Source: Pseudomonadota bacterium (GTDB taxonomy: Bacteria > Pseudomonadota > Alphaproteobacteria > Rickettsiales > UBA1997). From it: 64,000 bases of DNA. Below are positions 33,264 through 51,487 of this stretch, in pieces (the stretch's first letter is position 1; every line of letters starts with the position of its first letter). The stretch is from assembly GCA_040386195.1 (NCBI GenBank), contig JAZKFV010000012.1:64342-128341 (forward strand), given 5' to 3'. A program made the position numbers and the translations under genes. The notes beneath the pieces were generated by a model. That model was not told where the DNA came from, searched no databases, and saw nothing but the letters and a program-made list of their open reading frames with translations.

Positions 33264-33666
33264 AAATAATTACAATTGCCTGAGCAATATCTTTGGTGTC
33301 GCTCATTGATAAATCAATTTTAAAATTATTTTGATTCAAATGTTTTTGTAAAAATTGTTTAGCGATGGTGGTTAATTTTATTTTTGGTTTGCCGCTTGCA
33401 TCGTTAATAATTTCAATATCAGTAAAATTTATCCCGCGCCCAATGCCCAGCCCAATTGCTTTGGAGAAGGCTTCTTTGGCAGCAAATCTTTTGGCATAAT
33501 AACTAGTTTTAATCGCCAAATTTCCCTTTGCCAAATTTCCTTTTGAATTAGCAATTAAAATTTCTCCAGAAGTAAAAACTCGCTTCTCAAATCTATCTCC
33601 AAAACACTGCAAAGACTCACCAATTCTACCAATCTCAACAATATCAATTCCAATTCCAATGATCAT
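33250..33666 (-). CDS. acpS: Holo-[acyl-carrier-protein] synthase
   Basis: 138-aa ORF starting MIIGIGIDIVEIGRI, with FAAKEAFSKA further in. Confidence 0.9.
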   Translation of the reverse strand: MIIGIGIDIVEIGRIGESLQCFGDRFEKRVFTSGEILIANSKGNLAKGNLAIKTSYYAKRFAAKEAFSKAIGLGIGRGINFTDIEIINDASGKPKIKLTTIAKQFLQKHLNQNNFKIDLSMSDTKDIAQAIVIISNGF

Positions 33667-33698
33667 TTATAAAATCTTGTTATATTTGTAAAAAATTC

Positions 33699-33726
33699 TT
33701 GCCAGAAAAATATTTTATTAGATAAT
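33699..33726 (+). promoter_or_regulatory. Sigma70-like promoter candidate (TTGCCA, 16 nt spacer, GATAAT) facing the GC-rich structured element
   Basis: TTGCCA lies at 33699-33704 and GATAAT at 21-26, read directly. AT-rich DNA yields many chance -10-like hexamers, so confidence is low. Confidence 0.3.
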
Positions 33727-33733
33727 AATTTAG

Positions 33734-33818
33734 TCGGGCGTTGTGTGAATACAATAGCCTTTACGGTAAATAAACACAACACGCCGGGTTTGCGTGGTGG
33801 TGGCGCCCGGTATTTTAA
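33734..33818 (+). ncRNA. Candidate small structured RNA of unknown family (alternatively a bidirectional terminator/insulator)
   Basis: This is a GC-rich island in an AT-rich spacer. Hairpin 1 pairs GGGCGTTGTGTG (33736-47) with CACAACACGCC (33775-85) across a 2-nt internal mismatch. Hairpin 2 pairs CCGGG (33784-88) with CCCGG (33806-10) and is followed by TATTTTAAT. No protein-coding potential beyond a spurious 68-aa ORF. Confidence 0.3.
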
Positions 33819-33839
33819 TCTATCAAAACCAACTCAATT

Positions 33840-34106
33840 CTATTTTCTTCTCAACAAATCCCGAGTTTTTAAAGCCAGAATTATTCCAGATAAAATAATC
33901 ACTAAAATATTCTTCAAAATAATCGGCAAACTGCTGAGCATCAACCCATAAATCAGCCAGCAAATTACACTCAACATTGACAACAAATACATCCAAAAAG
34001 AAATTGCGTGAGTGTCTTTGGTTTGAATAACCCTGATTGCCTGAGGAACAAAACAAATAGCGCTTAATATTGCGGCGATATAGCCGACTATTTCAACTGT
34101 AGGCAT
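33840..34106 (-). CDS. SemiSWEET / PQ-loop family small transporter
   Basis: 88-aa, 3-TM ORF with the PQ motif in ICFVPQAIRVIQTKDTHAISF. Size and topology are typical of bacterial SemiSWEETs. Confidence 0.7.
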   Translation of the reverse strand: MPTVEIVGYIAAILSAICFVPQAIRVIQTKDTHAISFWMYLLSMLSVICWLIYGLMLSSLPIILKNILVIILSGIILALKTRDLLRRK

Positions 34107-34120
34107 TGGTCATAATAAAG

Positions 34121-35272
34121 TTAGTGAGATAGATAATCTGTGGATCTATTTTTTGATGATTCTTTGTTTTTATCTGGGGACAGCCATTCACCATTATTTT
34201 TATCTACTATTAATAAACGTTTTGAAAATTCTGTAGCAGTTTCCAAAAATCCTTTATCTAATTTTGCGTTAGATTGTATTGCTTGTATAAAGCCCATTCC
34301 CTCTAATGGATGAATGCTTAAACAATCAAATTCCATACCGTGAAATTTGTGATGAGTTTTATTTGGAAAAGATAGTAGTAATACTGAATTTTCTGGAAAA
34401 TCTATTTTTACTTCAGAATCCTGTCTTTGCTCTGGAACTTCTGCAACTCCACAAAAATTCAAAGTCGCTCCCGCTTTTTTGTTTGTGGTAACTATAATTA
34501 AAATTCTATCACCGGGATGATAATGCATATCCGTTGTTTTATCCGGGTCTTCAGCGGCAAAATTCATTAATGTACCACTACTGCGAATTTGAGTTGTTGG
34601 TTTTTGAATTACAGATGTCACTTCTTCATAAAAGTTCTGACTGTGGGGATCGTGAAAAATTTGTGTTTGTATTGCTAAAGATAATTGTTTTGCTTGTTTA
34701 GGAGTTAATTTACAAATTGTACTAATTGAGTATCTTTGTATATTTTCCTCATGATTGCATACTTTGCTTAATTCCATTGTTCTGATTGCTACAACTCGAT
34801 CTGGATTAGTTGAGTTTATGGTAAAAGGAATCAACTCTCCCAATTTTAATACTCCAAAAGATCCTTTGGGAATAGTGATTGTTTTTTTTAAGAGTTCCAT
34901 TGGTGTTTTGGTAGAAGATGGCATAACGCCATAATCGCCATAATGAACCTCAGTTTTTTCTCCCGCCGCAATTATAATACTGCCGATTTTATCATCGGGC
35001 AATCCTATGTCCGGAGAAGACACTTGAAGCACTTCTGGATTTTTCAAATCTAAAACAGTAGATCTGGATTCCTTCCCCTCCAAAGTGCTTGGCAATGCAT
35101 AAAACATATCCATCTCACCACCTGAAATATCCGATCTTAATATTGAATAATAAACTTCTGGGGGAGTTATTAAGTTTCGTACCTTATTTGCAAAGTCCCT
35201 TTGTTGTATGTGATATAATCCAGGACCAAACCTATTAAGAATTTCTTTTAATAATATATTACTACTACGCAT
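34121..35272 (-). CDS. Hypothetical protein with a C-terminal cupin-like fold
   Basis: 383-aa ORF. DMHYHPGDRILIIV and FPNKTHHKFHG resemble cupin motifs 1 and 2. It overlaps the upstream LysR gene by 8 nt. Confidence 0.5.
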   Translation of the reverse strand: MRSSNILLKEILNRFGPGLYHIQQRDFANKVRNLITPPEVYYSILRSDISGGEMDMFYALPSTLEGKESRSTVLDLKNPEVLQVSSPDIGLPDDKIGSIIIAAGEKTEVHYGDYGVMPSSTKTPMELLKKTITIPKGSFGVLKLGELIPFTINSTNPDRVVAIRTMELSKVCNHEENIQRYSISTICKLTPKQAKQLSLAIQTQIFHDPHSQNFYEEVTSVIQKPTTQIRSSGTLMNFAAEDPDKTTDMHYHPGDRILIIVTTNKKAGATLNFCGVAEVPEQRQDSEVKIDFPENSVLLLSFPNKTHHKFHGMEFDCLSIHPLEGMGFIQAIQSNAKLDKGFLETATEFSKRLLIVDKNNGEWLSPDKNKESSKNRSTDYLSH

Positions 35273-36221
35273 TTTCTAATTTTATTTTTTGAGCTTCTAA
35301 TAATTTTTCTGTTTGCAGCATTTTAACAAAATCCTTTGTTAAACCACTGAAAATTTTACCTTTTTTAAATAAAATTCCATAAATCATTTCTGGAAAATAA
35401 TTGGTTAATACTCTTCCCACTAAATCACCATTCTTTTCGCCTTCAAGAACAATATTTGAAATCATCGCTACACCAATATTATTACTAACAAATCTCTTTA
35501 AAATTTCCCAATCAGACATTTCAAATTCTATGCTGGTTCTAAGATTATGTGATTTAATAATTTCTTCAAAGGCTGGCAAAGTAATAAATTTAGGATCAAT
35601 TCTAACCAGCTCATATTTTTTGACATCAGACAAAACTATGTGCTGTTTGCTTGCCAGAGGATGATTTTTTTTTATTAATAAAATTGGCTGATAAGTAACA
35701 ATTGGAATAAATTCTAGCTCCGCAGGCAGATCCGATTTTCCTATCGGATAAATAAAAAAATCAATCTCATCATCAATCAGCCTTTTGATTGCATCATCTT
35801 TAGTTAGATTACGAATTTTAAATTTTACTTCACTGTGAATAGTTTTAAATTTTTCTATATATTTAGGCAATATATAAGAAATACTAACATGATTTGCAGC
35901 CAAGTTTATAGTGGTTGATTTTTTTCTTTCTGCGTGATCAATAAAACTTTTAAATAAGTCGTCAATCCCCTGAATATAAGGAATTGAACACATATAAAGC
36001 ATCTTCCCTTCTTCAGTAATTTTGATTTTCTTTTTATCTCTCTCAAAAAGTTTGGTGTTTAAATCTCGTTCTAAAGATTGAATTTGTAATGTGATTGCTG
36101 ATTGAGTTAAGCCGATTTTTTGTGCGGCTTTAGATATGCTGCCGGTTTGGACGGTGTGATAGAAGCCTTTTAGCTGCTGGAGGCGATTGTGTTTATAGTA
36201 AAATTGTTTGGGTAATTGCAT
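35265..36221 (-). CDS. LysR-family transcriptional regulator
   Basis: 318-aa ORF with the N-terminal wHTH LQQLKGFYHTVQTGSISKAAQKIGLTQSAITLQIQSLERDL and a LysR substrate-binding-length C-terminus. Confidence 0.9.
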   Translation of the reverse strand: MQLPKQFYYKHNRLQQLKGFYHTVQTGSISKAAQKIGLTQSAITLQIQSLERDLNTKLFERDKKKIKITEEGKMLYMCSIPYIQGIDDLFKSFIDHAERKKSTTINLAANHVSISYILPKYIEKFKTIHSEVKFKIRNLTKDDAIKRLIDDEIDFFIYPIGKSDLPAELEFIPIVTYQPILLIKKNHPLASKQHIVLSDVKKYELVRIDPKFITLPAFEEIIKSHNLRTSIEFEMSDWEILKRFVSNNIGVAMISNIVLEGEKNGDLVGRVLTNYFPEMIYGILFKKGKIFSGLTKDFVKMLQTEKLLEAQKIKLENA

Positions 36222-36335
36222 ATGAGTTAATGTAATATTAGTATTCGTTTAAACGATTATAACTAATTTGATTTCAGTTTCTATTTCAATAATTTGTTTC
36301 AATCCATTTAAATAATAATTCAATAATGTTTCATT

Positions 36336-37070
36336 ATGACTCACAATAACCAATTGTTACTTCCTCAAATCACCCACGACCTACGCAACTACATAGGCGG
36401 CATCTCCGGTCTAGCCAATATCGCCCTAGAAAATCTTATCACCTACATAAAAAAACAAGAAGCCATCGGCATCAAACCCGATGCCAATCTCAAAGAAATC
36501 TCCGAATGTATGGAAATGATTGCTCCTTATTCCAATGAAGCTCTTTGTTATGTCGAAGACCTACTCAACAACTCTCAAATGCAATCAGGAAAATTTAGCT
36601 TAGGAAAATTAGAGGAGTGTGATGTGGGTGAATTAGTCAAAGAATTATTAGCATTCAATCAAAGCTTTATATCCGATCATCAAATTACTTTTGAAGTGAA
36701 CATCGCAGAAAATCTTCCTAAATTAAAAACTGACATTCTAAGACTCAAACAAATCCTTATCAACCTGATCACCAACGCCGTTAAATATAGCCCCAAAGGC
36801 AATAAAGTAGAAATCACAATTAGTCAAAATTACAATTCTCAAATTCAAATCATTATCAAAGATTCTGGCATTGGTATGACCAAACAAGAAATCCAAATGG
36901 CGTTGAACGGCTATGGAAAAAATATTGATAAATCAAATCTAAATAAACCAATTGATTCTCACGGTCTTGGAATGCCAATTGTTAAACAATTATGTGAATT
37001 ACTGAGAGCGCAAATGACAATTGAGTCTGAGAAAAATAAAGGAACAAAAGTGACAATTTGTTTTTCTTGA
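36336..37070 (+). CDS. Soluble sensor-less histidine kinase (HisKA + HATPase_c only)
   Basis: 244-aa ORF with the H-box ITHDLRNYIGGISGLANI, N-box LINLITNAVKYS, G1 DSGIGM and G2 GLGMPIV. It has no TM or sensor domain, and no response regulator is adjacent. Confidence 0.8.
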   Translation: MTHNNQLLLPQITHDLRNYIGGISGLANIALENLITYIKKQEAIGIKPDANLKEISECMEMIAPYSNEALCYVEDLLNNSQMQSGKFSLGKLEECDVGELVKELLAFNQSFISDHQITFEVNIAENLPKLKTDILRLKQILINLITNAVKYSPKGNKVEITISQNYNSQIQIIIKDSGIGMTKQEIQMALNGYGKNIDKSNLNKPIDSHGLGMPIVKQLCELLRAQMTIESEKNKGTKVTICFS

Positions 37071-37075
37071 TTTTA

Positions 37076-37119
37076 TTTTTTTAATTACCGTCGGTTTCAA
37101 CCGAGGGTAATTAAAAAAA
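37076..37119. repeat. Long near-perfect palindromic hairpin (T7-ATTACCGTCGG / CCGAGGGTAAT-A7) just after the histidine-kinase stop
   Basis: Hand pairing of 37076-37094 with 37101-37119 gives about 18 bp with one G-G mismatch and a 6-nt loop. Confidence 0.6.
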
Positions 37120-37206
37120 CAAGATCAAAAAATTTGTCAATTGATGCATTACGTTTGATGTAATTAAGAACACCATTACCTCACCACGAAAAATTCTGGC
37201 GGGAAG

Positions 37207-37258
37207 GGCAATTCGGATAGTTACCACATATCTGAATTGCCGTTTTTATTTATTTTTT
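37207..37258 (+). terminator. Rho-independent terminator (plus strand)
   Basis: GGCAATTCGGATA (37207-19) pairs with TATCTGAATTGCC (37229-41) in a 13-bp stem including one G-U. It is followed by GTTTTTATTTATTTTTT. The element overlaps the 3' end of the convergent exonuclease gene. Confidence 0.6.
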
Positions 37259-38106
37259 GAATTTGATTTTAACCAACCATCTAAAAACTCTTGCAAATGC
37301 GGGCGCTCCTCGCCTTCGCTGGCAAGATAATTTGCTAAATCTTCTTGTGCTTGCATAAAATTTTCGGTGCTTAAAGTGCCGATATGGTGCTGATAATGTA
37401 GATAAAGCAAATAGGTGTTGGCAACATCGGTTTCGCAATAATCGCGAATTTCTTTTAATTTGCCGGCATCGTAATAATCGCAAACCATTGAGCCATCGAT
37501 CCCAAGTTTTCCGGGTAAACCAAAAACGGCGCAAAGTTCATTCATTTTTACTCGCGCCGAAGCGCCAAAATCTGAGAAGGCATCAACTAAATCACAATGC
37601 CAATCTAGAGAATATTTTTGATTATAATTATTCCATTTATCACCCATTTTATAAAGCCAAGCGGCGGTGATTCCATATTTGATGGCGCGATATTTTAGAA
37701 CCGGCAAATCAAAATTTTTGCCGTTAAAACTAACAATTCTGGGTGGTTGTTTTTTCATATAAGAAAAAAATCCTTTCACTAATTCTTCTTCATTTGAATC
37801 AATATTTCCGCCACTTCTAATTTCATTTAAAACATATCTTTCCGTTCCATCGCCATCACGAATTATATCGGCTTGCAAAAAGCTAATCGCCACCACTTTT
37901 TGAAAAGGTTGGCGCAAAAAACTATTTTTGCCATCAGTGATTTTTAAATGATAATCAATCAAAGCTTGGCGACACTGGGCCTTGTTTTTGCCTTCTAAAT
38001 CAAGCAAATTTTTTGCGGCGTCAATATCGGGAATGGTTTCAATATCAAAAACAAATAAAGAATTGTGTTGCATAAATTCTGTGATCTTTAAAAATTGAAA
38101 ATTCAA
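37246..38106 (-). CDS. Predicted 3'-5' exonuclease related to the exonuclease domain of family-B DNA polymerases
   Basis: 286-aa ORF with the ExoI-like FVFDIETIPD, then VSFNGKNFDLPVL and CETDVANTYLLY. I recall this as the COG3298-type family. Confidence 0.7.
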   Translation of the reverse strand: MNFQFLKITEFMQHNSLFVFDIETIPDIDAAKNLLDLEGKNKAQCRQALIDYHLKITDGKNSFLRQPFQKVVAISFLQADIIRDGDGTERYVLNEIRSGGNIDSNEEELVKGFFSYMKKQPPRIVSFNGKNFDLPVLKYRAIKYGITAAWLYKMGDKWNNYNQKYSLDWHCDLVDAFSDFGASARVKMNELCAVFGLPGKLGIDGSMVCDYYDAGKLKEIRDYCETDVANTYLLYLHYQHHIGTLSTENFMQAQEDLANYLASEGEERPHLQEFLDGWLKSNSKNK

Positions 38107-38138
38107 TAATTATTCAATTAAAAACAAAAAATTTAGTT

Positions 38139-39107
38139 ATGAAAGCATTTTTAATCAGCAAACCTGGATCACACAATAATTTAGAATTAAAAACTATCGA
38201 AGATCCAAAACCCCAGAGAGATCAAGTTGTAATTAGGCATACCGCGATTGGCATTAATCATTTTGATATTTGCTTTAGAAATGGCGCTTATAAATTAAGC
38301 CAAACCCCTGCCATTCTTGGGCTTGAAGCTTGCGGAATTATTGAGGAAGTAGGCAAAGATGTAACTGATTATAAAGTTGGTGAGCGCGTTGCTTATGCCA
38401 CCGGAGCAATTGGCGCCTACTCAGAGAGAAGGGCAGTGAAACAAAATTATTTAGTTGTGCCTCCACAAGGTTTAACCGACGAACAAGTTGCCGGATCACT
38501 TTTAAAAGGAATGATGGCGCATACTTTATTATTCAGAGTTTATTTGGCTGGGCGGGTGAAAAGAATTTTAATTCATTCGGCAGCTGGCGGAGTTGGGCAT
38601 TTTTTGTGTCAGTGGGCAAAACATTTAGGAATTGAAGTAATCGGAACAGTTGGCAGCGATGCTAAAATAGCAATTGCTAAATCTTTTGGCTGTGATCATG
38701 TCATTAATTATAGCAGCAAAGATTTTTTAGTTGAGTTAGATGCGATCACCAAAGGCGAGGGCGTTGGCATTGTTTATGATGGCGTTGGCAAAGATACAAT
38801 TTTAAAATCAATTGATTGTTTGTGGCCAATGGGAATGTGTGTTAGCTACGGCGAAGCCAGTGGCGCCACTCCGCCAATTGATTTAAATGCTTTATTGCTA
38901 AATTCTCTTTACATCACCCGCCCAACTTTGGCGCTTTATAAAGCTAAAAGAATTGAATTGGTTTTATCCGCCAATGAAGTGTTCAACGCAGTTGAGCGTG
39001 GAATTTTAAAACCCAATATTACGACTTATCAATTTAACGATATTCCAAAAGCGCATTTGGATTTAGAAAGTAGAAAAACCACCGGAGCTTTGGTTATCAA
39101 GGTTTAG
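38139..39107 (+). CDS. qor: NADPH:quinone oxidoreductase (zeta-crystallin / MDR family)
   Basis: 322-aa ORF with the nucleotide-binding motif HSAAGGVGHFLCQWAK and an MDR N-terminal GroES-like region. Confidence 0.8.
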   Translation: MKAFLISKPGSHNNLELKTIEDPKPQRDQVVIRHTAIGINHFDICFRNGAYKLSQTPAILGLEACGIIEEVGKDVTDYKVGERVAYATGAIGAYSERRAVKQNYLVVPPQGLTDEQVAGSLLKGMMAHTLLFRVYLAGRVKRILIHSAAGGVGHFLCQWAKHLGIEVIGTVGSDAKIAIAKSFGCDHVINYSSKDFLVELDAITKGEGVGIVYDGVGKDTILKSIDCLWPMGMCVSYGEASGATPPIDLNALLLNSLYITRPTLALYKAKRIELVLSANEVFNAVERGILKPNITTYQFNDIPKAHLDLESRKTTGALVIKV

Positions 39108-40096
39108 TAATGTTGCCAACCATATTGTAAAATCTTCACCTCTCCACCATTTTTATCTAAAAGACAAACTTTTGGTTTATCTTGAGGTTTTTGTAAATAA
39201 CCAACGCAAGTAAGTTTCACGCCAATTTTTTTAGCTAAATTCACAATCTTTTGCCGATCTTTTTTGTTCACACAAAAAATCAATTCATAATCATCGCCGC
39301 CAGATAAAAGCTGATTCAAGCTAATATTTTTACCAAGACAAGATCGTGCTGCCGCTGATAATGGAATTGCGCTTTGATTGATAATTGCATCAAGATTTGC
39401 AGCTTGGCAAATATGTTTTAAATCCGCCAAAAATCCGTCGGAAATATCAATTGCTGATTGGCAATTTTGTTTGATAAGTTCGATTCCAAGCCTGATTCTT
39501 GGGCTTGGTTGCAAGTGACGATTAGTTAAATATTTATAATGAGTTTTATTTGGGCAGATAATTTTTTCTTGCAATAATTGCAGACCCAAAAACGCATCAC
39601 CAATATTTCCAGAAACAAAAACCAAATCTCCAGCTTTTGCTTTACTGCGTTTCAAAGATTTTCCTTTAGCAACTTCGCCAAAAATTGTTAGGCTAAAACA
39701 TAATTTGTTTTCAGTTCTAATGCTGTCGCCACCAATTAAAACAATACCAAATTCATCGCTGACATCTTTTAAAGCGCGGCAAAATTCTTTAACAAAATTT
39801 TCATCCAAATCAATATTTTGCGAAAAACCCAGCAGATAATATAATGGCTTGGCGCCAGATGCGGCAAGGTCGGAAAGGTTGGTTTTAAGAAGTTTGCTGG
39901 CAATGTTATAAGCGCCGTCAGATTTTTTAAAATGAATATCTTCCGCCATCAAATCTTTACTAATCACTAATTCTTTTTTGGGAGAAAGAGAAATTAGCGC
40001 AACATCATCTTGCAGGGCATTTGATGCTTTGCAGCCTTTGGTTAGAGGTAAAAAATATTTTTTTATAATATCGAATTCACAGTTCATAGCTAGCAA
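39104..40096 (-). CDS. thiL: Thiamine-monophosphate kinase
   Basis: 330-aa ORF with EFDIIKKYF, DDVALI, EDIHF, and the AIR-synthase-like fold motif GGDDYELIF. An alternative ATG lies at 40087. Confidence 0.85.
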   Translation of the reverse strand: MLAMNCEFDIIKKYFLPLTKGCKASNALQDDVALISLSPKKELVISKDLMAEDIHFKKSDGAYNIASKLLKTNLSDLAASGAKPLYYLLGFSQNIDLDENFVKEFCRALKDVSDEFGIVLIGGDSIRTENKLCFSLTIFGEVAKGKSLKRSKAKAGDLVFVSGNIGDAFLGLQLLQEKIICPNKTHYKYLTNRHLQPSPRIRLGIELIKQNCQSAIDISDGFLADLKHICQAANLDAIINQSAIPLSAAARSCLGKNISLNQLLSGGDDYELIFCVNKKDRQKIVNLAKKIGVKLTCVGYLQKPQDKPKVCLLDKNGGEVKILQYGWQHY

Positions 40097-40820
40097 TCAC
40101 GCCGTTGGAAATATATTTATTCATCAAAGATCCAATATCAAAATTCGGATATTTTTTGTTTAAATTTTGATAAATTTGGTAAAGATTTTCGCCTTTTTTA
40201 ATTTGTTTTAAAAACAAAAACTCAGCCTGCGAAAGCTCTGATATATTGGTTTGCCACTTTGCTCTTTCAACTAAAATCCAATTTTTTTTCAAGTGAATTT
40301 TTGCATCAGAAGATTTCCAAATATTATAAATTGAATAATTGCAAGCCAATAAATAACAGGATGGATGCAGTTTAAATTTAACTTTAAACAAATCTTTTTC
40401 TTTTAATTTCTGAAATTTCTCCAAAGCAAAATCAGCAACATCTTGAGCAAAATAAGCAAAATGATATTGCCATTCAAGACGAGCTAAATCCTTTAAATAA
40501 AAGAGTTGGTGCTCGCTTTTTAAATCATTAATTAGCTTATAAAAATATTTTCCATATTCATCCAAATTACCACTTTGAGAAAAATATTGCCGATGAAACT
40601 TAGTGCATAAATAACCAAAATATTTATCACCAACCATTTTTTTTGTGGCTGGATAAAGCATTTCCAAAACCGAATCAAAATTGCCAAAAACATTATTGCG
40701 ATAAATTTGTACACGATCTTTAACGGCAACTTTATAATTTTTAATTTCGCCTAAAATTTTATTTTGTTGCGGATTGTAGATTTGATTGGCAAATTGTTTT
40801 TGTAATTCTTTGAGCTTCAT
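40077..40820 (-). CDS. DUF2063-family protein (MNIO partner, BufC/HvfC-like)
   Basis: 247-aa ORF. ATGA overlaps the upstream DUF692 gene by 4 nt. The N-terminus LQKQFANQIYNP..., the size, and the position immediately after DUF692 match the DUF692/DUF2063 pairing known from bufferin and HvfABC operons. Confidence 0.7.
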   Translation of the reverse strand: MKLKELQKQFANQIYNPQQNKILGEIKNYKVAVKDRVQIYRNNVFGNFDSVLEMLYPATKKMVGDKYFGYLCTKFHRQYFSQSGNLDEYGKYFYKLINDLKSEHQLFYLKDLARLEWQYHFAYFAQDVADFALEKFQKLKEKDLFKVKFKLHPSCYLLACNYSIYNIWKSSDAKIHLKKNWILVERAKWQTNISELSQAEFLFLKQIKKGENLYQIYQNLNKKYPNFDIGSLMNKYISNGVIASYEL

Positions 40821-41662
40821 AATTGGTGTTTGATAATTTTTTCAGCCTTCTTCGCCTCAGCCATCAAAACCGAAAATTCCGGAATATCTTGATCCCATTC
40901 AATTAGAGTTGGTGAGGTTTTAAACTTGCTAACGGCAATTTTATATAAATCCCAAACTGCATCACAAACAAAATTATCATGAGTATCGACCAACATTTTT
41001 TGTTTGCCAAATTTGCGCACCGAATGCCCAGCCAAATGCATTTCGCCAACAATTTTTGCATCAATATTTTGCAAATATTTTTTAGCATCAAAACCATTAT
41101 TTGTAGAGCTAACATAAATATTGTTAATATCTAACAAGATCTTGCAGCCGGTAATTTTAGCGGTTTGATTGATAAATTCATCCTCGGCAATTTGAGAATT
41201 TATAAAGCTTAAATAAGTTGAAGGATTTTCAACTAAAATTTCTCTTTTTAAAAAATCTTGAGTTTGAGAAATATTTCCGCAGAGAATTTTTAATGATTCT
41301 TTGGTATAGGGAATTGGTAGCAAATCATTTAAAACTCTATCTTCAACATTACTCCACGAAATATGATCGGACACCAAAAACGGCTCGGTAATGGCAATTA
41401 ATTTTTTTAGATTCTGTAAATGTTTTTTGTGAATTTTGGTTGCTGATCCCAGTGAAAGACCAACGCCGTGAAGACTTAAAGGATAATGTTGACGAACTTT
41501 TTTGATAAAATTTATGGCAGCGCCGCCAGATGAGAAAAAATTTTCACTATGAACTTCAAGCCAAGGAACTGGTGGTTTTTTTTCAAGAATGTATTGGTGA
41601 TGTATATGCCTTAAACCAACTCCAACAGCGTTTGCTGAAGTTGGCTTGTTAAGATTGAACAC
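40817..41662 (-). CDS. DUF692 / multinuclear non-heme iron oxidative (MNIO) enzyme, BufB/MbnB/HvfB-like
   Basis: 281-aa ORF with VGVGLRHIHHQYIL...PWLEVHSENFF, LSLHGVGLSLGS, VSDHISW, LVENPSTYL, and EMHLAGH, a typical DUF692 TIM-barrel metal-ligand pattern. Confidence 0.85.
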   Translation of the reverse strand: MFNLNKPTSANAVGVGLRHIHHQYILEKKPPVPWLEVHSENFFSSGGAAINFIKKVRQHYPLSLHGVGLSLGSATKIHKKHLQNLKKLIAITEPFLVSDHISWSNVEDRVLNDLLPIPYTKESLKILCGNISQTQDFLKREILVENPSTYLSFINSQIAEDEFINQTAKITGCKILLDINNIYVSSTNNGFDAKKYLQNIDAKIVGEMHLAGHSVRKFGKQKMLVDTHDNFVCDAVWDLYKIAVSKFKTSPTLIEWDQDIPEFSVLMAEAKKAEKIIKHQL

Positions 41663-41668
41663 TTGAAA

Positions 41669-41911
41669 CTATTTTGTTTCAGTTGCTTTTTTGTCAGCCG
41701 GAGTAGCTTTTGCTTTTTTGTTAGCAGCTTTTTTAGAATTACATTTGTGAGCTTCTGCTTTAGTAGCCGAAGTTTGATTAGCTTCTTTTTTAGCTTTGCA
41801 AGTATTAGAAGAACATTTGTGAGCAGTTTCTTTGTTGAACATAGAGCAGCTGGCAACAAGAGTTAAGCCAACAACACCAGTAGCAACGGATTTTAAAAAA
41901 GTTTTTTTCAT
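41669..41911 (-). CDS. Small Lys/Ala-rich lipoprotein with repeated AHKC motifs (candidate RiPP precursor)
   Basis: 80-aa ORF with a signal peptide and lipobox (GLTLVAS/C). Two copies of the motif are present: ETAHKCSSNTCKAKKEANQ and AEAHKCNSKKAANKK. Its stop lies 6 nt upstream of the DUF692 start. Confidence 0.6.
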   Translation of the reverse strand: MKKTFLKSVATGVVGLTLVASCSMFNKETAHKCSSNTCKAKKEANQTSATKAEAHKCNSKKAANKKAKATPADKKATETK

Positions 41912-41953
41912 AATATAAAAAATTAAAGTTAATAAAGTTAAAAAGTGGTAAGT

Positions 41954-42208
41954 TTAAGACAAGCTGCCATTAACAATTCTTTCGCAAGTGCCTTTTGGAA
42001 GAAGAACCCATTCGTCTTTAGCGCCGTCAATTTTGGCGGATCCAGCGCAAGAGTGAGTGCCTTTTTTTGTAGCACAATCATTTTTTCCGGCTTTAACAAC
42101 GCCATAACATTTTTCCATTTTAGCGTTATCGGCTAAAGCTGGAGTGGATGCAATTGCAATTGAAGTGACGCCAAGAATAACTGAGGAAATAAAAGTTTTT
42201 TTGTTCAT
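41954..42208 (-). CDS. DUF2282-family secreted Cys-containing peptide (bufferin BufA1-like RiPP precursor)
   Basis: This uses the inner ATG at 42206-42208 of track ORF 41954-42256. The sequence is [26 protein letters not shown] (Sec signal), then [48 protein letters not shown]. That is the DUF2282 pattern, with 4 Cys. Confidence 0.8.
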
Positions 42209-42311
42209 GTCTTTGTAGGAAAAATTTAATGAAATAAGAAAAAATAACTGCAGCAAAAACTAATTATTTTTTTGTATTTGTCAAAAACAATTTGGCAGCA
42301 AAATTGATTTT

Positions 42312-43097
42312 TTAATAATGCTTTAAAATTCTGCTTCCAAAGCCAATTTTTTGACTATTTTTTATTGTTTTATAAACAAACAAATTGGCTTTTTTAACTG
42401 CACTTTCCAAGTTTAAATTTTGACTCACAAAACAAGTAATTGCAGTGGCTAATGTGCAGCCGGTTCCGTGAACATTTTTGAAAGGTAATTTTTTATTACT
42501 GAAGAATTTTTCTGCGCCATTTTCTTGGAGTAAATAGTTAAAAATTTTATCGCCGCAGTTTAAATGCCCGCCTTTGATTAAAACATTTTTAACCCCAATT
42601 TTTTTAATTTTTTTTGCGGCAATTTTTACATCATCTAAATTTTTTATTTTCATCTCCGCCAAAATTTCTGCCTCAAAAATATTGGGTGTAACTAAATATG
42701 AATTGGCAATTAATTGTTCTTTCAAAACCTTGATAGCATTGGTTTTCAAGAGCAAATCGCCGCTGGTGGCAACCATTACCGGATCGGTTATGATTGGAAT
42801 TTTTTTAGCTTTTTGTTTTAAAATTTCTGCAACCGTTTCAGTGATTTGGGCATTGCCAAGCATACCAATTTTGATCGCATCAATTTTTATATCATCCAAA
42901 ACAACTTCAATTTGTTTGCTTAAAAAATCAACCGGCGGATAGAAAATGTCATAAACTTTTTGGCTATTTTGAGCGGTAAGACAAGTGATTGCAGAAGCGC
43001 AGTAAGTTTGAAGCGCAGTGGCAGTTTTAATGTCAGCTTGCACGCCAGCGCCACCGCAAGAATCTGAGCCGGCAATGATGAGTATTTTGTGTTTCAC
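42312..43097 (-). CDS. thiD: Hydroxymethylpyrimidine / phosphomethylpyrimidine kinase
   Basis: 261-aa ORF with ILIIAGSDSCGGAGVQADIKT, KIGMLG, and VHGTGCTLATAI. Confidence 0.9.
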   Translation of the reverse strand: MKHKILIIAGSDSCGGAGVQADIKTATALQTYCASAITCLTAQNSQKVYDIFYPPVDFLSKQIEVVLDDIKIDAIKIGMLGNAQITETVAEILKQKAKKIPIITDPVMVATSGDLLLKTNAIKVLKEQLIANSYLVTPNIFEAEILAEMKIKNLDDVKIAAKKIKKIGVKNVLIKGGHLNCGDKIFNYLLQENGAEKFFSNKKLPFKNVHGTGCTLATAITCFVSQNLNLESAVKKANLFVYKTIKNSQKIGFGSRILKHY

Positions 43098-43137
43098 AAT
43101 AAATTTATTTTTTTACTGAACGAATTGTGCAAATTAC

Positions 43138-43163
43138 TCACCGCCAAAATAATTGGCGGCTGC
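43138..43163 (-). terminator. Possible terminator hairpin after purE
   Basis: The minus strand reads GCCGCCAA-TTATT-TTGGCGGT about 15 nt after the purE stop. The downstream U-tract is poor (GAGTAATTTG). Confidence 0.35.
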
Positions 43164-43176
43164 GTCATTTGTCATT

Positions 43177-43662
43177 TTAAGGATTTAGCCCAACTGATTT
43201 GGTCTGAGTGTTTCGAAAATCGACTAATTTTTTAGCTAATTTTTCATCATTCAAAGCCAAAATTGCTATTGCCAAAAGCGCCGCATTTTTAGCACCGGCA
43301 GAGCCAATTGCTAAAGTTCCAACCGGAATTCCAAAAGGCATTTGGGCAATTGATAACAAGCTATCTAAACCTTTCAAAGTTTTGCTCTCAACAGGAACGC
43401 CCAAAACCGGAAGTTCAGTCATCGCCGCCGCCATTCCCGGCAAATGCGCCGCACCACCAGCGCCAGCAATTATTACTTTAATCCCGTTTTCTTTAGCGTT
43501 ATGGGCAAAATCATAAAGCCTTTGCGGAGTTCGGTGCGCTGAAACAATTTTGGTTTCATAAGCAATTTTAAATTCATCCAAAATATCGCAAGCAAATTTC
43601 ATCGTTGTGAAATCCGACTTGCTGCCCATTATAATTGCGATTTGATTTTTGTTTTTGCTCAT
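43177..43662 (-). CDS. purE: N5-carboxyaminoimidazole ribonucleotide mutase
   Basis: 161-aa ORF with [17 protein letters not shown], and [13 protein letters not shown]. Confidence 0.9.
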
Positions 43663-43664
43663 AA

Positions 43665-43925
43665 TTATTTATAAATTTTGCTACGATGATTAATTTCAAT
43701 AACTAAAACCACTAATTCTTTTTCTTGTAAATCACAAATAATTCTATAATCGCCAACTCGATAACGCCATAAACCTTTTAAATTAGAGGTTAGAGCTTTG
43801 CCAAATAATTTAGGTGATTTTTTTAAATTTTCCTTATTAAGAAAATTTAATATTTTACTTTGTGTCTGATTATCAAGTTTGCTGATAATTTTTTTTGATT
43901 TTTCACTAAGGCTTATTTCCCACAT
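43665..43925 (-). CDS. Type II toxin, RelE/ParE superfamily
   Basis: 86-aa [36 protein letters not shown] is the classic RelE/StbE C-terminal signature. Confidence 0.8.
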
Positions 43926-43947
43926 TTGGTGATTGTGTTAATTGTTA

Positions 43948-44181
43948 CTATTCAAGTCTAATTCCAAGCTCTTTGGCGATTTCTTCAAGACTATAAGTTT
44001 TGCTGCCACTTTTTTTATGTTCTTTTAAAGCTTTAATGCCAGAGCGGTAATCTTGCCAATCTTCAAGCTTTTCTTGTAAAGCTTTTTTGATCAACCAAGA
44101 TTTGGTGCGATCTTCTTCTTCGCAAAATTTTTCTAGCACTTTTTCAAGATCTGCGGGGATTCTAAAAGTTAAAACTGACAT
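43948..44181 (-). CDS. Type II antitoxin, ribbon-helix-helix (CopG/RelB-like)
   Basis: 77-aa ORF, 22 nt upstream of the toxin gene. The N-terminal RHH is LTFRIPADLEKVLEKFCEEEDRTKSWLIKKAL. Confidence 0.75.
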   Translation of the reverse strand: MSVLTFRIPADLEKVLEKFCEEEDRTKSWLIKKALQEKLEDWQDYRSGIKALKEHKKSGSKTYSLEEIAKELGIRLE

Positions 44182-44247
44182 AATAAAATAAAATTAAAAT
44201 TGATAATGTGCACAATGTAATACAAACAATACTTTGTAGTCAATTAT

Positions 44248-45630
44248 TTATTTTAAATCTTCAACCAGCTTTATAAAAAAATCTCCTCTTACTTCAAAAT
44301 TTTTCCACTGATCAAAAGAAGCGCAAGCGGGGGAAAGAAGGATATTTTTTTCTGCGGATTGATCTTTTAAAGCCAAATCATAAGCCATTGCAAAGGCATT
44401 TTTTAAATTGTCACATTTAAAATATTCAACTTTATTTTCTAAAGTTTTGGCAAATTCGTCGCTGGCGGCGCCGATTAAAAAGGCATATTTGATTTTTGAA
44501 AAATATTGTTCAAGGCTGGCAATGCCGCCATCTTTAGCTTTGCCGCCTAAAATCCAATAAATATTTTGATAAGGTTTAAGAGCGTTTTCGGTGGAATCGG
44601 CGTTGGTGGCTTTGCTGTCGTTGATAAAGTTGATGTTGTTGATAGTTTTAACTAGCTGCATTCTGTGCCTCAAACCTTGAAAAGTTTTGATTGCGGCGAT
44701 GATTTGTTCTTCAGAAATTCCCGATAAAAAACAATTAGCAAAAGCAAAAGCAATATTTTGAGCGTTATGTTCACCCTTCAAAAAGGTTCTGGCGCCTAAG
44801 TCAATAGCTGATTTATTAGCTCCAATATTGTTGTAAATAATATTGCCAATCATCGCAATTCCACCTTTTATGATCTGTGTTGTTGAGATGGGAATTAAAG
44901 TTGATTTGTAATTAGAATCATTTTTTAAATCTTCATAAACTGCTTTAGAATGTTCATTATCAATGCCAATCACAGCAAAATCATCTTTAGTTTGATTCAA
45001 AAAAATTCGTTTTTTTGCAGCAATATAACCATTCATATCTTTATGGCGATCCAAATGATCTGGGGTTATGTTTAAAATATTGGCAATATGAAATCGAGTT
45101 TTATCAATCAAATCCAACTGATAAGACGACATTTCAATAATATAATTTTCACCTGCGTTTAGTTTGGGCAAAGCCAGTGCGCCAATGCCAATATTGCCGC
45201 CAACAGCGTGAGGTTTTTTTGCTGATGCAAAAATATGTCCGCTGAGTGCGGTGGTAGTTGATTTGCCGTTGGTTCCGGTGATGCCGATAAATTGAGCAGC
45301 TTTGTTAAATAAATATAAAATTTCAACATCACAAATAATTGGACAATTGTTTTTATTAGCTTCTAAAACAATTTTATGAGGAGTTGGATATTTTAAAGGA
45401 ATGCCAGCGGCAAGCACCAAAGATTGAGCATTTTGCCAATCAATTGCTTGGATATTTTTAATAATTTTTAAATTAGATTTTAGATCTTGATGTTCTTGCA
45501 AATATTTATTGAGACTTTCCAAAGAACTTTGATTATCATCGCCAACCACAACTTCAGCGCCTTGTTCCAAAAGAAATTTTACCGCCGCATTTCCTGAAAT
45601 TCCTAGACCAAAAACGATAAATTTTTTCAT
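44248..45630 (-). CDS. murD: UDP-N-acetylmuramoylalanine--D-glutamate ligase
   Basis: 460-aa ORF with the N-terminal Rossmann VFGLGISG and the Mur ligase P-loop GITGTNGKSTT. Confidence 0.9.
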   Translation of the reverse strand: MKKFIVFGLGISGNAAVKFLLEQGAEVVVGDDNQSSLESLNKYLQEHQDLKSNLKIIKNIQAIDWQNAQSLVLAAGIPLKYPTPHKIVLEANKNNCPIICDVEILYLFNKAAQFIGITGTNGKSTTTALSGHIFASAKKPHAVGGNIGIGALALPKLNAGENYIIEMSSYQLDLIDKTRFHIANILNITPDHLDRHKDMNGYIAAKKRIFLNQTKDDFAVIGIDNEHSKAVYEDLKNDSNYKSTLIPISTTQIIKGGIAMIGNIIYNNIGANKSAIDLGARTFLKGEHNAQNIAFAFANCFLSGISEEQIIAAIKTFQGLRHRMQLVKTINNINFINDSKATNADSTENALKPYQNIYWILGGKAKDGGIASLEQYFSKIKYAFLIGAASDEFAKTLENKVEYFKCDNLKNAFAMAYDLALKDQSAEKNILLSPACASFDQWKNFEVRGDFFIKLVEDLK

Positions 45631-45700
45631 AGTTTTAATTAAAAATTATTGTAAATTGCGGCTAATCTAATCCAAATAAAAATCAAAATCCAACAAGATT

Positions 45701-46522
45701 ATGCCCGAACTTCCTGAGGTTGAAACCATTTGTCGTGGTATTGAGCAAAATATTATCGGCAAAAAAATTGCTGCAATTCAAACTTCTGATAAAAATTTGC
45801 GTCTGCCATTTCCCAAAAATTTTTCTGAATTAAAAGATCAGAAAATTATTTCGGTTGCCAGAAGAGCTAGATATATTCTGATTAAAATCACTACTCAAAA
45901 AATTTTATTAGTGCATTTGGGAATGAGTGGCAAATTACTTTATTTAGAAAAACTGCCAAAAAAATTAGAAAAGCATGATCATTTTGTAATGCAGTTCAGC
46001 GATGATTCATGCCTGATTTATAATGATCCAAGACGATTTGGTTTGGTAGATTTGGTGGATGAGAAAAAAATTAATTTGCATTCAATGATTAAAAATCTTG
46101 GCTTTGAACCTTTAACAAAAGATTTTAACGGCAAATATTTGCAAGCGAAATTAAAAGGCAAAAAAATCAATATCAAAACTGTAATGATGGATAACGCAAT
46201 TGTGGTTGGTGTTGGCAATATTTATATTAATGAATCTTTATTCGAATCCAAAATTTCACCTTTAAGAGAAGCCGGAAATTTGAGTTTAAAAGAGCTAGAA
46301 ACTCTAATTAACAACATTAAAAAAATTCTCCAAAAAGCCATCAAACTAGGCGGATCAACACTGCGCGACTATGTAAAATCCAACGGCGATGTTGGTGGTT
46401 TTCAGTTTGATTTCAAAGTCTACGGACGCGATAATTGCAGCTGCCTTGTTTGCTCTGGTAAAATTAAAAAAATTAAACAAAATGGCAGATCAAGCTTTTA
46501 TTGCCCATCTTGCCAACATTAA
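45701..46522 (+). CDS. mutM: Formamidopyrimidine-DNA glycosylase
   Basis: 273-aa ORF starting MPELPEVE, with a C-terminal zinc finger CLVCSGKI...FYCPSCQ. Confidence 0.9.
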   Translation: MPELPEVETICRGIEQNIIGKKIAAIQTSDKNLRLPFPKNFSELKDQKIISVARRARYILIKITTQKILLVHLGMSGKLLYLEKLPKKLEKHDHFVMQFSDDSCLIYNDPRRFGLVDLVDEKKINLHSMIKNLGFEPLTKDFNGKYLQAKLKGKKINIKTVMMDNAIVVGVGNIYINESLFESKISPLREAGNLSLKELETLINNIKKILQKAIKLGGSTLRDYVKSNGDVGGFQFDFKVYGRDNCSCLVCSGKIKKIKQNGRSSFYCPSCQH

Positions 46523-46546
46523 ATATCAATTCTAAGCAAAACTAAA

Positions 46547-47977
46547 ATGATTCCCTTTGACGATAAATTAAAAGAAGAATGTGGTGTTTTTGGCATTTTT
46601 AATAGTAAAGATGCGGCGGTGAATACGGCGTTGGGGTTGCATGCTTTGCAGCATCGCGGGCAAGAAGCGGCGGGGGTGGTGGCTTGTCATAATGGTAATT
46701 TTGCGATGCATTTTGCGGATGGGTTGGTGGGTGATAATTTTAATTCGTCGGAAATTGTTAATAAATTGCAGGGCGATATTGCCATTGGGCATGTGCGCTA
46801 TTCTACGGCGGGTAAAAAAACTGCCCGCAATTATCAACCGATTTTTGCTGAGTTTAGTTTTGGCTGTTTGGCGATTGCTCATAATGGCAATTTGACTAAC
46901 GCGGCGGTGCTTAGAAAATCCTTGATTGAGCGTGGTTCAATTTTTCAATCATCAATGGATACCGAAGTGATTATTCATTTAATTGCGCTGAGTCAGAAAA
47001 ACACTTTGATTGACAAAATTGTTGATGCTATTTCCCAAATTGAAGGTGCTTATTCATTAGTTATTCTGCATAAAGACGGCATTATCGCCATTCGCGATCC
47101 TTATGGAGTTCGCCCTTTAGTGCTTGGAAAATTAGGTGAGGCTTATGTTGTTGCAAGTGAAACTTGTGCTTTTGATATTATTGGCGCTGAGTTTGTGCGC
47201 GATATTAAGCATGGGGAATTGGTAATTATTGATAATTTGGGCATTAAAAGTATCGAACCTTTTAGAGCTGCGCCCTCAAAATTTTGTATTTTTGAATATA
47301 TTTATTTTGCCCGCCCGGATAGCGTTTTGGAAGGTAAAAGTGTTTATCAGATGCGTAAAAATATTGGTATTGAGCTGGCTAAAGAAGTGAGTATTGATGC
47401 TGATGTTGTGGTGCCAATTCCTGATTCCGGCGTTCCGGCGGCAATTGGTTATTCTTTGCAATCCAAAATTCCTTTTGAGCTGGGCATTATTAGAAACCAT
47501 TATGTTGGGCGAACTTTTATTGAGCCGTCAGATCGTATTCGCCATTTTGGAGTCAAGCTCAAACACAATGCCAATCTTAATGTTATCAAGGGTAAAAGAG
47601 TGATTTTGGTTGATGATTCTATCGTGCGCGGCACGACTTCGAAAAAGATTGTCCAAATGATTAGAGAAGCGGGAGCCAAAGAAGTTTATATGTTAATTGC
47701 CAGCCCGCCAACCACCGATTCTTGCTTTTATGGCGTGGACACTCCGGATAAAAAAGATTTAATGGCGGCGAATCATAAAATTGCTGAAATGGCAAAATTG
47801 ATTGGCGTCGATCATTTGGCTTATATTTCAATTGATGGTTTATATCGCGCGGTTGGTGAAACTAAAAGAAATGGCGACTTTCCGCAATATTGCGACGCCT
47901 GCTTCACCGGAGAATATCCGATTCGTTTAACCGACCAAGAAGGTGGTGAAATGCCGTTATTTAATTTTGCAAAATAA
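46547..47977 (+). CDS. purF: Amidophosphoribosyltransferase
   Basis: 476-aa ORF with the N-terminal nucleophile region ECGVFGI, the PRPP-binding VILVDDSIVRGTT, and Cys ligands near the C-terminus (CFYGVD, CDACF). Confidence 0.95.
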   Translation: MIPFDDKLKEECGVFGIFNSKDAAVNTALGLHALQHRGQEAAGVVACHNGNFAMHFADGLVGDNFNSSEIVNKLQGDIAIGHVRYSTAGKKTARNYQPIFAEFSFGCLAIAHNGNLTNAAVLRKSLIERGSIFQSSMDTEVIIHLIALSQKNTLIDKIVDAISQIEGAYSLVILHKDGIIAIRDPYGVRPLVLGKLGEAYVVASETCAFDIIGAEFVRDIKHGELVIIDNLGIKSIEPFRAAPSKFCIFEYIYFARPDSVLEGKSVYQMRKNIGIELAKEVSIDADVVVPIPDSGVPAAIGYSLQSKIPFELGIIRNHYVGRTFIEPSDRIRHFGVKLKHNANLNVIKGKRVILVDDSIVRGTTSKKIVQMIREAGAKEVYMLIASPPTTDSCFYGVDTPDKKDLMAANHKIAEMAKLIGVDHLAYISIDGLYRAVGETKRNGDFPQYCDACFTGEYPIRLTDQEGGEMPLFNFAK

Positions 47978-47978
47978 T

Positions 47979-48203
47979 ATGACTAAATCGAAAAATAATA
48001 TTGAAAAACTAGATTTTGAAACCGCCTTAGAAAAGTTGGAAGAAATCGTTGAGAAGTTAGGCAGCGGCAAAGTAAATCTAGAAGAGATGGTTGATTTATA
48101 CGAACAAGGAATTGCCTTAAAAGATCATTGCAGCAAAAAATTATCCGACGCTAAAATGAAAGTTGAAATCCTCGTTAAAAAAGAATCCGCCATCAATAAT
48201 TAA
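47979..48203 (+). CDS. xseB: Exodeoxyribonuclease VII small subunit
   Basis: This uses the ATG at 47979, 1 nt after the purF stop. LDFETALEKLEEIVEKLGSGKVNLEEMVDLYEQGIALKDHC is a typical XseB sequence. Confidence 0.85.
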   Translation: MTKSKNNIEKLDFETALEKLEEIVEKLGSGKVNLEEMVDLYEQGIALKDHCSKKLSDAKMKVEILVKKESAINN

Positions 48204-48312
48204 TTTTTGTCTTTTATTGCGACACGAAAATTATTTTAAAAAATTTTCTTTGCTTTTTAATCCCGATCAATTTATCCGTTAGAGCTCTTTTTAATTAGCC
48301 CGATTGCAGAAC

Positions 48313-48909: not shown

Positions 48910-48914
48910 ATATT

Positions 48915-48960
48915 AGTCGTAAGTCGTAAGTCGTAAGTCGTAAGTCGTAAGTCGTAAGTA
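48915..48960 (+). repeat. Heptanucleotide microsatellite (AGTCGTA)6.5 in the pgsA-topA spacer
   Basis: Read directly as six perfect AGTCGTA units plus AGTA. It starts 6 nt after the pgsA stop and ends 12 nt before the topA ATG. Confidence 0.95.
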
Positions 48961-48972
48961 TAAAAATATAAA

Positions 48973-51486: not shown

Positions 51487-51487
51487 A

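Follow-up and report, generated by a model that had tools for sequence, protein, structure and literature searches.

Introduction

Bufferins and captophorins are among the most widespread peptides that are made by ribosomes and modified after translation (RiPPs), and the number of substrates that a BufB-type multinuclear non-haem iron oxidase (MNIO) serves, together with its choice of Cys residues, is the question addressed here. In the precursor of bufferin 1 (Buf1), the two central Cys residues are modified to thiooxazoles, and a disulfide joins the outer two (PMC12452194). The BufB and BufC proteins are necessary and sufficient for this modification, and DoxX is dispensable (PMC11626156). 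All tested products of MNIO-PME1 pairs carry 5-thiooxazoles, and an earlier note on the DNA studied here, which gave the HvfA modification as an oxazolone/thioamide, is outdated on this point since that modification has now been revised to a 5-thiooxazole (PMC13097082). We report on a bufferin-type gene cluster in a 64,000-nucleotide stretch (hereafter the window) of contig JAZKFV010000012.1 (positions 64,342 to 128,341 of the forward strand; assembly GCA_040386195.1) from a Pseudomonadota bacterium assigned to the Rickettsiales (UBA1997). Between the genes for the DUF2282 precursor (bufA1) and the MNIO (bufB), it contains a second small gene, which we call LP, and by analogy with the characterised systems we consider it probable that this is a Buf1-type operon in which two different precursors are served by one BufBC pair. 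The value of the operon lies in this second precursor.

Among the closest known systems is bufferin 1 of Caulobacter vibrioides (BufA1-BufB1-BufC1-BufD1), with which the window cluster shares a DUF2282 precursor possessing a Sec signal and four conserved Cys residues, an MNIO of the BufB equivalog, a DUF2063/PME1 partner protein, and the gene order precursor-MNIO-partner. It differs from the Caulobacter operon by lacking DoxX (BufD), by the presence of a second, unrelated-looking lipobox precursor between bufA1 and bufB, and by its low-GC, Rickettsiales-like host, a member of an order in which MNIO-PME1 clusters have been reported to be depleted (PMC13097082). Precursor genes in tandem are on record for bufferin clusters, and hundreds of unclassified small Cys-containing open reading frames (ORFs) with signal peptides have been reported in front of MNIO genes (PMC12452194).

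Lipobox-bearing MNIO precursors are represented by NedA and DybA, which are modified and then triacylated (PMC13056109). With NedABC of Neisseria dentiae and other DAG-RiPPs (PMC13056109), LP has in common a short lipobox precursor, a Cys-repeat core, adjoining MNIO and PME1 genes, and the predicted product, a triacylated metal-binding membrane peptide. It departs from them in its repeat, which is E-[SA]-[NH]-[KG]-C-[SAG]-[AS]-K-K and not EGKCG, in its BufB-type enzyme, which scores below the cut-off of the HvfB model, and in the presence of a DUF2282 precursor in the same operon. HvfABC (oxazolin, Haemophilus influenzae) and FonABC (fontiphorin) resemble the LP system in that short Lys-Cys repeats occur in variable number, the core is disordered and the MNIO is paired with a PME1 protein; the best solved match of the window BufB, 3BWW, is itself listed among MNIO-PME1 loci (PMC13097082). 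LP is set apart from these peptides because no HvfA-type model matches it, because its enzyme has Gln after the catalytic Asp where 3BWW and FonB have Phe, and because its signature is Asn or His two residues ahead of the Cys (position -2), where EGKCG has Gly. Judged by their descriptions, the "CxxxxC" precursors (PMC12452194) and the uncharacterised, lipoprotein-type Cluster X with its CxxxxC motif (PMC13056109) are likewise similar, as they possess a signal peptide and are associated with MNIOs; the window LP contains C33-SSNT-C38. In contrast to these groups, the spacing across the LP family is 4 or 5 residues and the repeat unit is longer, and a Lactamase_B_2 gene, frequent in the published CxxxxC clusters, was noted in none of the LP loci that we examined.

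LP represents a previously unnamed family that, like its [N/H]-x-C repeat mimicking the BufA1 sites, appears to be new, with the CxxxxC group compared by description only. The pairing of LP with a DUF2282 precursor under one BufB-type enzyme appears to be new as well. A search of the supplements of PMC13097082 and PMC12452194 for the strings HKCS, NKCS and CGAKNGC yielded no match.

Genes and proteins of the bufferin-type operon

Six closely spaced minus-strand genes (thiD, bufA1, LP, bufB, bufC and thiL) occupy positions 39104..43097 of the window. The bufA1 gene (41954..42208) encodes an 84-amino-acid (aa) protein from an ATG codon; a mechanical ORF list contains a longer, TTG-started ORF, and the 84-aa version agrees with an independent gene call and with the homologues. 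It is followed after 42 nt by LP (41669..41911; 80 aa) and, after a further 6 nt, by bufB (40817..41662; 281 aa), whose GTG codon, 6 nt past the LP stop, is the sole in-frame start ahead of the conserved GVGLRH motif. The bufC gene (40077..40820) overlaps bufB by 4 nt (ATGA), and its end overlaps thiL, by 11 nt with the ATG at 40087 as the thiL start and by 20 nt with the TTG at 40096. All coordinates and spacings previously read for the four packed genes from bufA1 to bufC (42 nt, 6 nt, a 4-nt overlap, and an 11-20 nt overlap) match these data, and an independent gene call on a public contig that is identical over the locus yields the same six products.

The profile searches that the earlier note had proposed for DUF2282, DUF692 and DUF2063 were run, and bufA1, bufB and bufC match far beyond chance. 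BufA1 is recognized by PF10048 (DUF2282) with 94.8 bits (E 3e-27) over 53/53 profile positions. It possesses a Sec signal peptide with a predicted cleavage between ALA and DN, and its invariant alignment columns are C34, G36, N43, C45, C54, G73, C75 and G81. All four of its Cys residues, C34, C45 (K-N-D-C), C54 (T-H-S-C-A-G) and C75, are therefore conserved, and by analogy with Buf1 one would expect C45 and C54 to be the thiooxazole sites.

BufB scores 335.9 bits (E 2e-100) against PF05114 (MbnB_TglH_ChrH) and 370.6 bits against the NCBIfam equivalog NF050167 (MNIO_BufB), above the cut-off of 310; it reaches 224 bits with the HvfB model, below the cut-off of 360, and its scores likewise stay under the cut-offs for ApyH, MbnB and ChrH. 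When compared with 79 relatives, it holds all columns that are at least 93% conserved except for two (V225 for I and K248 for G), and the columns kept include H65, H100, E145, D178, N181, H209, D226, H228, E255 and D257. The spacing of this set of His, Asp, Glu and Asn residues matches that of the iron ligands of MbnB, and we take these residues, by homology to MbnB, to be the metal ligands. 3BWW, the best match in the PDB by sequence (E 9e-40), has an "ERDF" motif whose Asp aligns with D257, which we take to be the catalytic Asp. The metal-ligand pattern that had been ascribed to the DUF692 enzyme is consequently retained, with the inferred ligand and catalytic columns all kept. Directly after the catalytic Asp, where 3BWW has Phe, BufB has Q258 in common with the DUF2282-type enzymes among the 79 relatives.

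The N-terminal domain of BufC matches PF09836 (DUF2063) with 63.5 bits (E 2e-17), and the protein matches the NCBIfam model for HvfC at E 5e-16 (positions 1-219 of 237), below the cut-off of that model. A sequence search of the PDB gave no match for BufC. An AlphaFold2 (AF2) model built from 49 homologues has a pLDDT of 93.7, and its best fold match in the PDB is 3DEE, the PME1 protein of Neisseria gonorrhoeae (probability 1.0, TM 0.61/0.74), followed by TglI (8HI7_A); the C-terminal part of the model has a weak fold resemblance to the RRE proteins of lasso-peptide B1 type. Judged from this model, BufC is a PME1 partner composed of an N-terminal DUF2063 domain and an RRE-like C-terminal domain. 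The presence of a DUF2282/MNIO/DUF2063 RiPP operon of the bufferin type between thiD and thiL is hence borne out by Pfam, NCBIfam and the fold comparison. In everything that sequence can test, the cluster is a genuine bufferin (captophorin)-type operon, and apart from its second precursor it is unremarkable within a very large known family.

The second peptide, LP, and its family

LP starts with the signal peptide MKKTFLKSVATGVVGLTLVAS, directly followed by C22, and the residues around this junction (L-V-A-S-C22) match the lipobox pattern. Three further Cys residues, C33 (A-H-K-C), C38 (S-N-T-C) and C57 (A-H-K-C), are found in the core, and the Lys-rich tail is predicted to be disordered; AF2 models no part of LP with confidence except the helix of the signal peptide. 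Mature LP (41669..41845 in the window), like the family at large, consists of about 28% Lys and contains almost no aromatic or hydrophobic residues, and the C-terminal end of the family members is a poly-Lys/Ala/Thr tail of variable length. LP has no match in Pfam or NCBIfam, and when 19 LP members were compared with NCBIfam, no HvfA-type (EGKCG-repeat) family was matched at E<=1; an assignment of LP to HvfA, BufA2 or another curated family was dismissed as no such NCBIfam or Pfam match exists.

A search with the single LP sequence among 5.8 billion proteins retrieved 11 homologues, and a family profile applied to the same number of proteins retrieved 86 clusters at 90% identity. When 1.84 billion representatives were searched exhaustively with a profile, only 64 of them were hit at E<=0.001. 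The hits are all 53-123 aa long, save one product of 160 aa that resembles a frameshift fusion, and the three with an organism in the source name are all labelled Rickettsiales bacterium. In nearly all of the 86 members first retrieved, the lipobox Cys is at position 22 and the lipobox is present as judged by its pattern only; the residue at +2 is Ser in most members. The family has 2-7 core Cys residues in the context E-[SA]-[NH]-[KG]-C-[SAG]-[AS]-K-K, spaced by 4-5 and 9-10 residues, with a paired spacing of 4 (41 cases) or 5 (71 cases), and Lys directly precedes the Cys at 47% of the sites. Comparison of the window LP with that of its relative L002 over the first 32 codons gave a pN/pS ratio of 0.14 at a pS of 0.47. 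Because of this low ratio, and of homologues that occupy the same place in the operon, the sequence data indicate that LP is a real, translated gene under purifying selection. The earlier note had counted the extra peptide gene among the unusual traits of the cluster, and rightly so; given a conserved lipobox Cys-repeat family, its significance exceeds what had been estimated.

The sequence contexts of the Cys residues link LP to BufA1. Across 59 BufA1 sequences, CysII is found in K-N-D-C with Asn at -2 in 100% of the cases, and CysIII in G-H-S-C-A-G with His at -2 in 94%; the contexts of CysI and CysIV are quite different. In the LP family, Asn or His occupies position -2 of 405 of the 474 core Cys residues (85%), and small residues follow the Cys. 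The corresponding value is 10% in composition-preserving shuffled cores and 6% in the other ORFs of the window. In the window LP, all three core Cys residues (A-H-K-C, S-N-T-C and A-H-K-C) fit this signature. From its sequence, LP gives the impression of BufA1 modification sites cut to a minimum and strung along a disordered, lipid-anchored chain. Since these contexts copy the modified sites of BufA1 and not its disulfide-forming Cys residues, and since LP is the sole candidate precursor found beside the MNIO gene in 12 loci, as described in the following section, LP is probably a substrate of the MNIO. We regard the Cys contexts as a stronger argument for this view than the position of the gene.

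Genomic contexts of LP and probable history of the cluster

We examined 19 independent LP loci, the window included. In 18 of them, the MNIO gene has LP directly upstream, with a gap of at most about 25 nt, and LP occupies the canonical precursor slot, 6-10 nt in front of the MNIO gene. The dual-precursor arrangement BufA1-LP-MNIO-PME1 is present in six loci (the window, L002, a JGI contig, L078, L080 and L081). In 12 of the 19 loci (L005, L006, L008, L012, L014, L020, L027, L076, L079, L082, L083 and L084), the arrangement is LP-MNIO-PME1, no DUF2282 gene was found upstream of the MNIO gene, and LP is the sole candidate precursor found beside the MNIO. The remaining locus, L077 (6001..7305), contains LP alone, followed by a perfect hairpin with a T8 terminator and then by thiL-RDD-lpxC; a search of this locus revealed neither an MNIO or PME1 gene nor remnants thereof. 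The L077 LP may work unmodified, or may be modified by an enzyme encoded elsewhere. Conversely, L003 (5986..8540) and L004 (5998..8643) carry MNIO-PME1-thiL without an adjacent precursor. Upstream of the L003 MNIO gene, and abutting it, is a large ORF that we take to resemble glutamyl-tRNA synthetase. This locus is labelled "Lentimonas sp." yet groups with the Rickettsiales-like clade and is probably mis-binned. Generally, the nearest MNIO and LP relatives come from metagenome-assembled genomes that are labelled "Rickettsiales bacterium" or, in some cases, clearly mislabelled ("Rickettsia typhi", "Lentimonas").

In a neighbour-joining tree, bootstrapped with a numpy distance routine, the MNIOs of this clade form one group (bootstrap 100%) nested among BufB enzymes that accompany DUF2282 precursors in other Proteobacteria. 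Subclade A (99%) comprises L078, L003 and the group of the window; subclade B (90%) comprises the LP-only loci and L004, which lacks an adjacent precursor. The gene order of L078 is BufA1-LP-MNIO-PME1-DoxX-thiL and hence represents the full set. To search for DoxX, we built a hidden Markov model (HMM) from 44 genes located 3' of bufC in gamma- and betaproteobacterial loci. It recovers the Pfam-annotated DoxX that L078 retains between PME1 and thiL (1.8e-28), and even with the threshold relaxed to E<=10 it matches nothing in the 64-kb window and nothing in the other close loci. The earlier statement that DoxX is missing from the cluster is thus confirmed for the entire 64 kb, but the absence is not unusual, as DoxX, though frequent in such clusters, is dispensable: in Caulobacter, both the modification and the protection against copper proceed without it, and the buf2 operon has no doxX gene (PMC11626156).

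The simplest history starts with an ancestor that had both precursors and DoxX, followed by stepwise losses. The ancestor of the clade probably possessed the order bufA1-LP-bufB-bufC-doxX-thiL, as L078 still does; the lineage of the window would then have lost doxX, and the sister subclade would have lost bufA1 and doxX and retained LP alone. Such a reductive series across a Rickettsiales-like clade appears to be new.

LP as a probable substrate of the BufB/BufC enzymes

From the characterised Buf1, Fon and Ned systems, the following mechanism can be proposed. BufB would act in the cytoplasm together with BufC, whose RRE-like C-terminal domain would hold the substrate, and the two proteins would oxidise selected Cys residues to 5-thiooxazoles, with a loss of 4 Da per Cys. 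BufA1 would be modified at C45 and C54, exported via Sec and cleaved by signal peptidase I, and it would then fold, with a disulfide between C34 and C75, into a soluble mini-protein that buffers copper in the periplasm. LP would serve as a second, disordered substrate with C33, C38 and C57 in their [N/H]-x-C-[small residue] contexts. Subsequent to its modification, it would be exported, receive a diacylglyceryl group on C22 and be cleaved by signal peptidase II; the Ser residue at +2 suggests that its destination is probably the outer membrane. The outcome would be a lipid-anchored, thiooxazole-containing metal-binding peptide. That one BufB/BufC pair matures two structurally unrelated precursors in this manner, a soluble DUF2282 bufferin and a lipid-anchored, Lys-rich peptide, and that LP has replaced BufA1 in most of the clade, is a composite proposal to which we give an even chance of being correct.

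Several observations weigh against LP being a substrate. L077 keeps LP without an MNIO or PME1 gene at the locus, and L003 and L004 keep the enzymes with no precursor gene beside them. Immediately after its catalytic Asp, BufB has Q258 and not the Phe of 3BWW, and FonB, an enzyme acting on Lys-Cys repeats, has been reported to have Phe at this position (PMC13097082). Furthermore, non-RiPP lipoproteins of several families occur inside bufferin clusters (PMC13056109), and the modification of LP is deduced from position and motifs. On the same side stands the rejection of LP as a diverged DUF2282 peptide: an hhalign comparison of the LP and BufA1 profiles covers 18 columns of the signal peptide only.

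The alternative that survives best, and one that we consider unlikely but worthy of serious attention, is that LP is an accessory lipoprotein, either a membrane-anchored thiol/imidazole metal binder or a poly-Lys envelope peptide with unmodified Cys residues, so that BufA1 is the sole RiPP precursor in the window. An accessory role would account for L077, where LP has its own terminator and no MNIO or PME1 gene; it would be in keeping with the non-RiPP lipoprotein families reported from bufferin clusters (PMC13056109) and with the DUF2282-type specificity site of BufB (Q258), and a composition rich in His, Cys and Lys could bind metal unmodified. It fits poorly, however, with the 12 loci in which LP is the only peptide gene found by MNIO-PME1 and the enzymes would otherwise have no nearby substrate, with Cys contexts that copy the two modified sites of BufA1 and not the disulfide ones, and with a gene that sits in the canonical precursor position, 6-10 nt before the MNIO gene.

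The signal peptides of the two peptides merit separate mention. BLASTP aligns the window LP with BufA1 weakly (16/56 identical residues, E 8e-5). Where BufA1 and LP reside in the same cluster (the window, L002, L078, L080 and L081), their signal peptides are alike (KKTF[IL]xSVxxGV), and the LP profile picks up the signal peptides of such co-resident BufA1 proteins at 23-32 bits; among the BufA1 proteins of other clades, it gives one weak match only (L060, 17 bits). This likeness hints at an origin by duplication or at a shared handling or recognition of the two peptides.

Thiamine genes and the wider window

The gene downstream of bufC is thiL (39104..40087, minus strand), for thiamine-monophosphate kinase, which scores 292 bits against TIGR01379 (cut-off 184). 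Upstream of bufA1 lies thiD (42312..43097, minus strand), for hydroxymethylpyrimidine/phosphomethylpyrimidine kinase, with 283 bits against TIGR00097 (cut-off 205) and 283 bits against PF08543. The 103-nt spacer between thiD and bufA1 (42209..42311) is the sole sizeable gap in the cluster and, judged by the gene layout, a candidate promoter region for it; thiD itself is probably outside the RiPP unit. A scan of positions 38900..43800 for promoter and terminator consensus sequences returned no more sites than are found in shuffled sequence, and it detected no terminator-like site at the bufC-thiL junction. From their 11-nt overlap, co-transcription of bufC and thiL is likely. An Rfam scan of the whole window (1..64000) revealed one tRNA (9584..9658) and no thiamine pyrophosphate (TPP) riboswitch or other family.

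In 15 loci of the clade, thiL is located directly 3' of the PME1 gene (or of doxX), usually with overlapping or abutting codons. In contrast, thiD is found upstream of bufA1 only in the close relatives of the window, L080, L081 and the JGI contig. These three and L002 are the closest relatives, with purE-thiD upstream where this flank is visible (in L081 also fpg and murD); their dual-precursor clusters are followed not by thiL but by a DUF2497 gene (L002, L080 and L081) or by an unannotated gene (JGI contig). The window is the only examined locus that both thiD and thiL adjoin, and when all its ORFs were compared with the related loci by phmmer, only the cluster itself and thiL recurred. In subclade B, thiL is overlapped at its 3' end by a gene for an RDD-family membrane protein, after which lpxC often comes (L004, 8615..9310; L005, 8626..9285; L012, 5451..6203; also L076, L077, L079 and L082-L084), and the block precursor-MNIO-PME1-thiL-RDD is conserved there.

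The linkage to thiL is an old and frequently kept synteny with thiL as a passenger at the 3' end of the operon, and the linkage to thiD is specific to the lineage of the window. The earlier note had described the cluster as embedded in thiamine salvage genes; the adjacency stands, and thiD and thiL both score above their equivalog cut-offs, but they are two separate pieces of synteny and not a single thiamine unit. Nothing in the loci, or known of these protein families, points to a functional tie of the cluster to thiamine. It is accordingly very improbable that the MNIO product or LP serves thiamine chemistry, or that a ThiL-like, PurM-family ATPase aids the maturation of the peptides. To be sure, PME1 and thiL have stayed neighbours in 15 loci while the subclades differ in their upstream flank and in the genes farther away, even L077 keeps LP beside thiL, and the window has thiD upstream in addition. 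Yet the downstream gene scores as a ThiL equivalog above the cut-off, the four closest relatives possess the full dual-precursor cluster without thiL after it, thiD is upstream only in the immediate relatives, DoxX separates PME1 from thiL in L078, the window lacks a TPP riboswitch, and characterised bufferins need only BufA, BufB and BufC (PMC11626156).

That genome shrinkage has left the cluster as a decaying remnant that no longer yields a functional product, as the stepwise losses in related loci (DoxX, BufA1, all precursors in L003 and L004, and the enzymes in L077) might suggest, is hardly credible, given that all four window genes are intact, that BufB deviates in only two of its near-invariant columns and has retained the catalytic Asp and all inferred ligands, that the BufC model is confident (pLDDT 93.7), that LP is under purifying selection, and that the tight gene overlaps are preserved.

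Beyond the cluster, genes for a ParE toxin (86 aa) and an RHH/DUF6290 antitoxin (77 aa) are present between purE and murD (43665..44181, minus strand); murD and purE are adjacent without this pair in L081, so that it looks like the insertion of a toxin-antitoxin module in the lineage of the window. The window, whose GC content is 32-41%, furthermore encodes a 1494-aa protein with RTX, cadherin-like and Ig domains (12416..16900, minus strand), a 700-aa LRR_6 protein (10196..12298, plus strand), and an 877-aa ORF (2417..5050, minus strand) in which an N-terminus of the peptidyl-tRNA hydrolase type is joined to ankyrin repeats and a Peptidase_C26 segment and which may be a fusion or a miscalled ORF. 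RTX/cadherin, LRR and ankyrin domains are typical of host-interacting bacteria, and a host-associated, Rickettsiales-like alphaproteobacterium is a reasonable description of the organism.

Biological implications

The loci assembled here constitute a natural experiment, in which enzymes of the same clade are found with BufA1 and LP, with LP alone, or with no adjacent precursor, or are absent while LP is kept. LP reduces the sites of BufA1 to a short repeat, and this suggests that an Asn or His residue two positions before the Cys marks the target. If LP is indeed modified as proposed, it would represent a new, lineage-restricted class of captophorin precursors and would reveal a simple recognition rule for BufB-type enzymes, namely Asn or His at -2. 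One and the same cell would then possess a periplasmic and a membrane-tethered thiooxazole metal buffer. The poisoning of bacteria with copper by the host cell is a plausible selective pressure on Rickettsiales-like bacteria, and LP would add a lipid-anchored member to the copper-peptide repertoire of those that live in association with a host.

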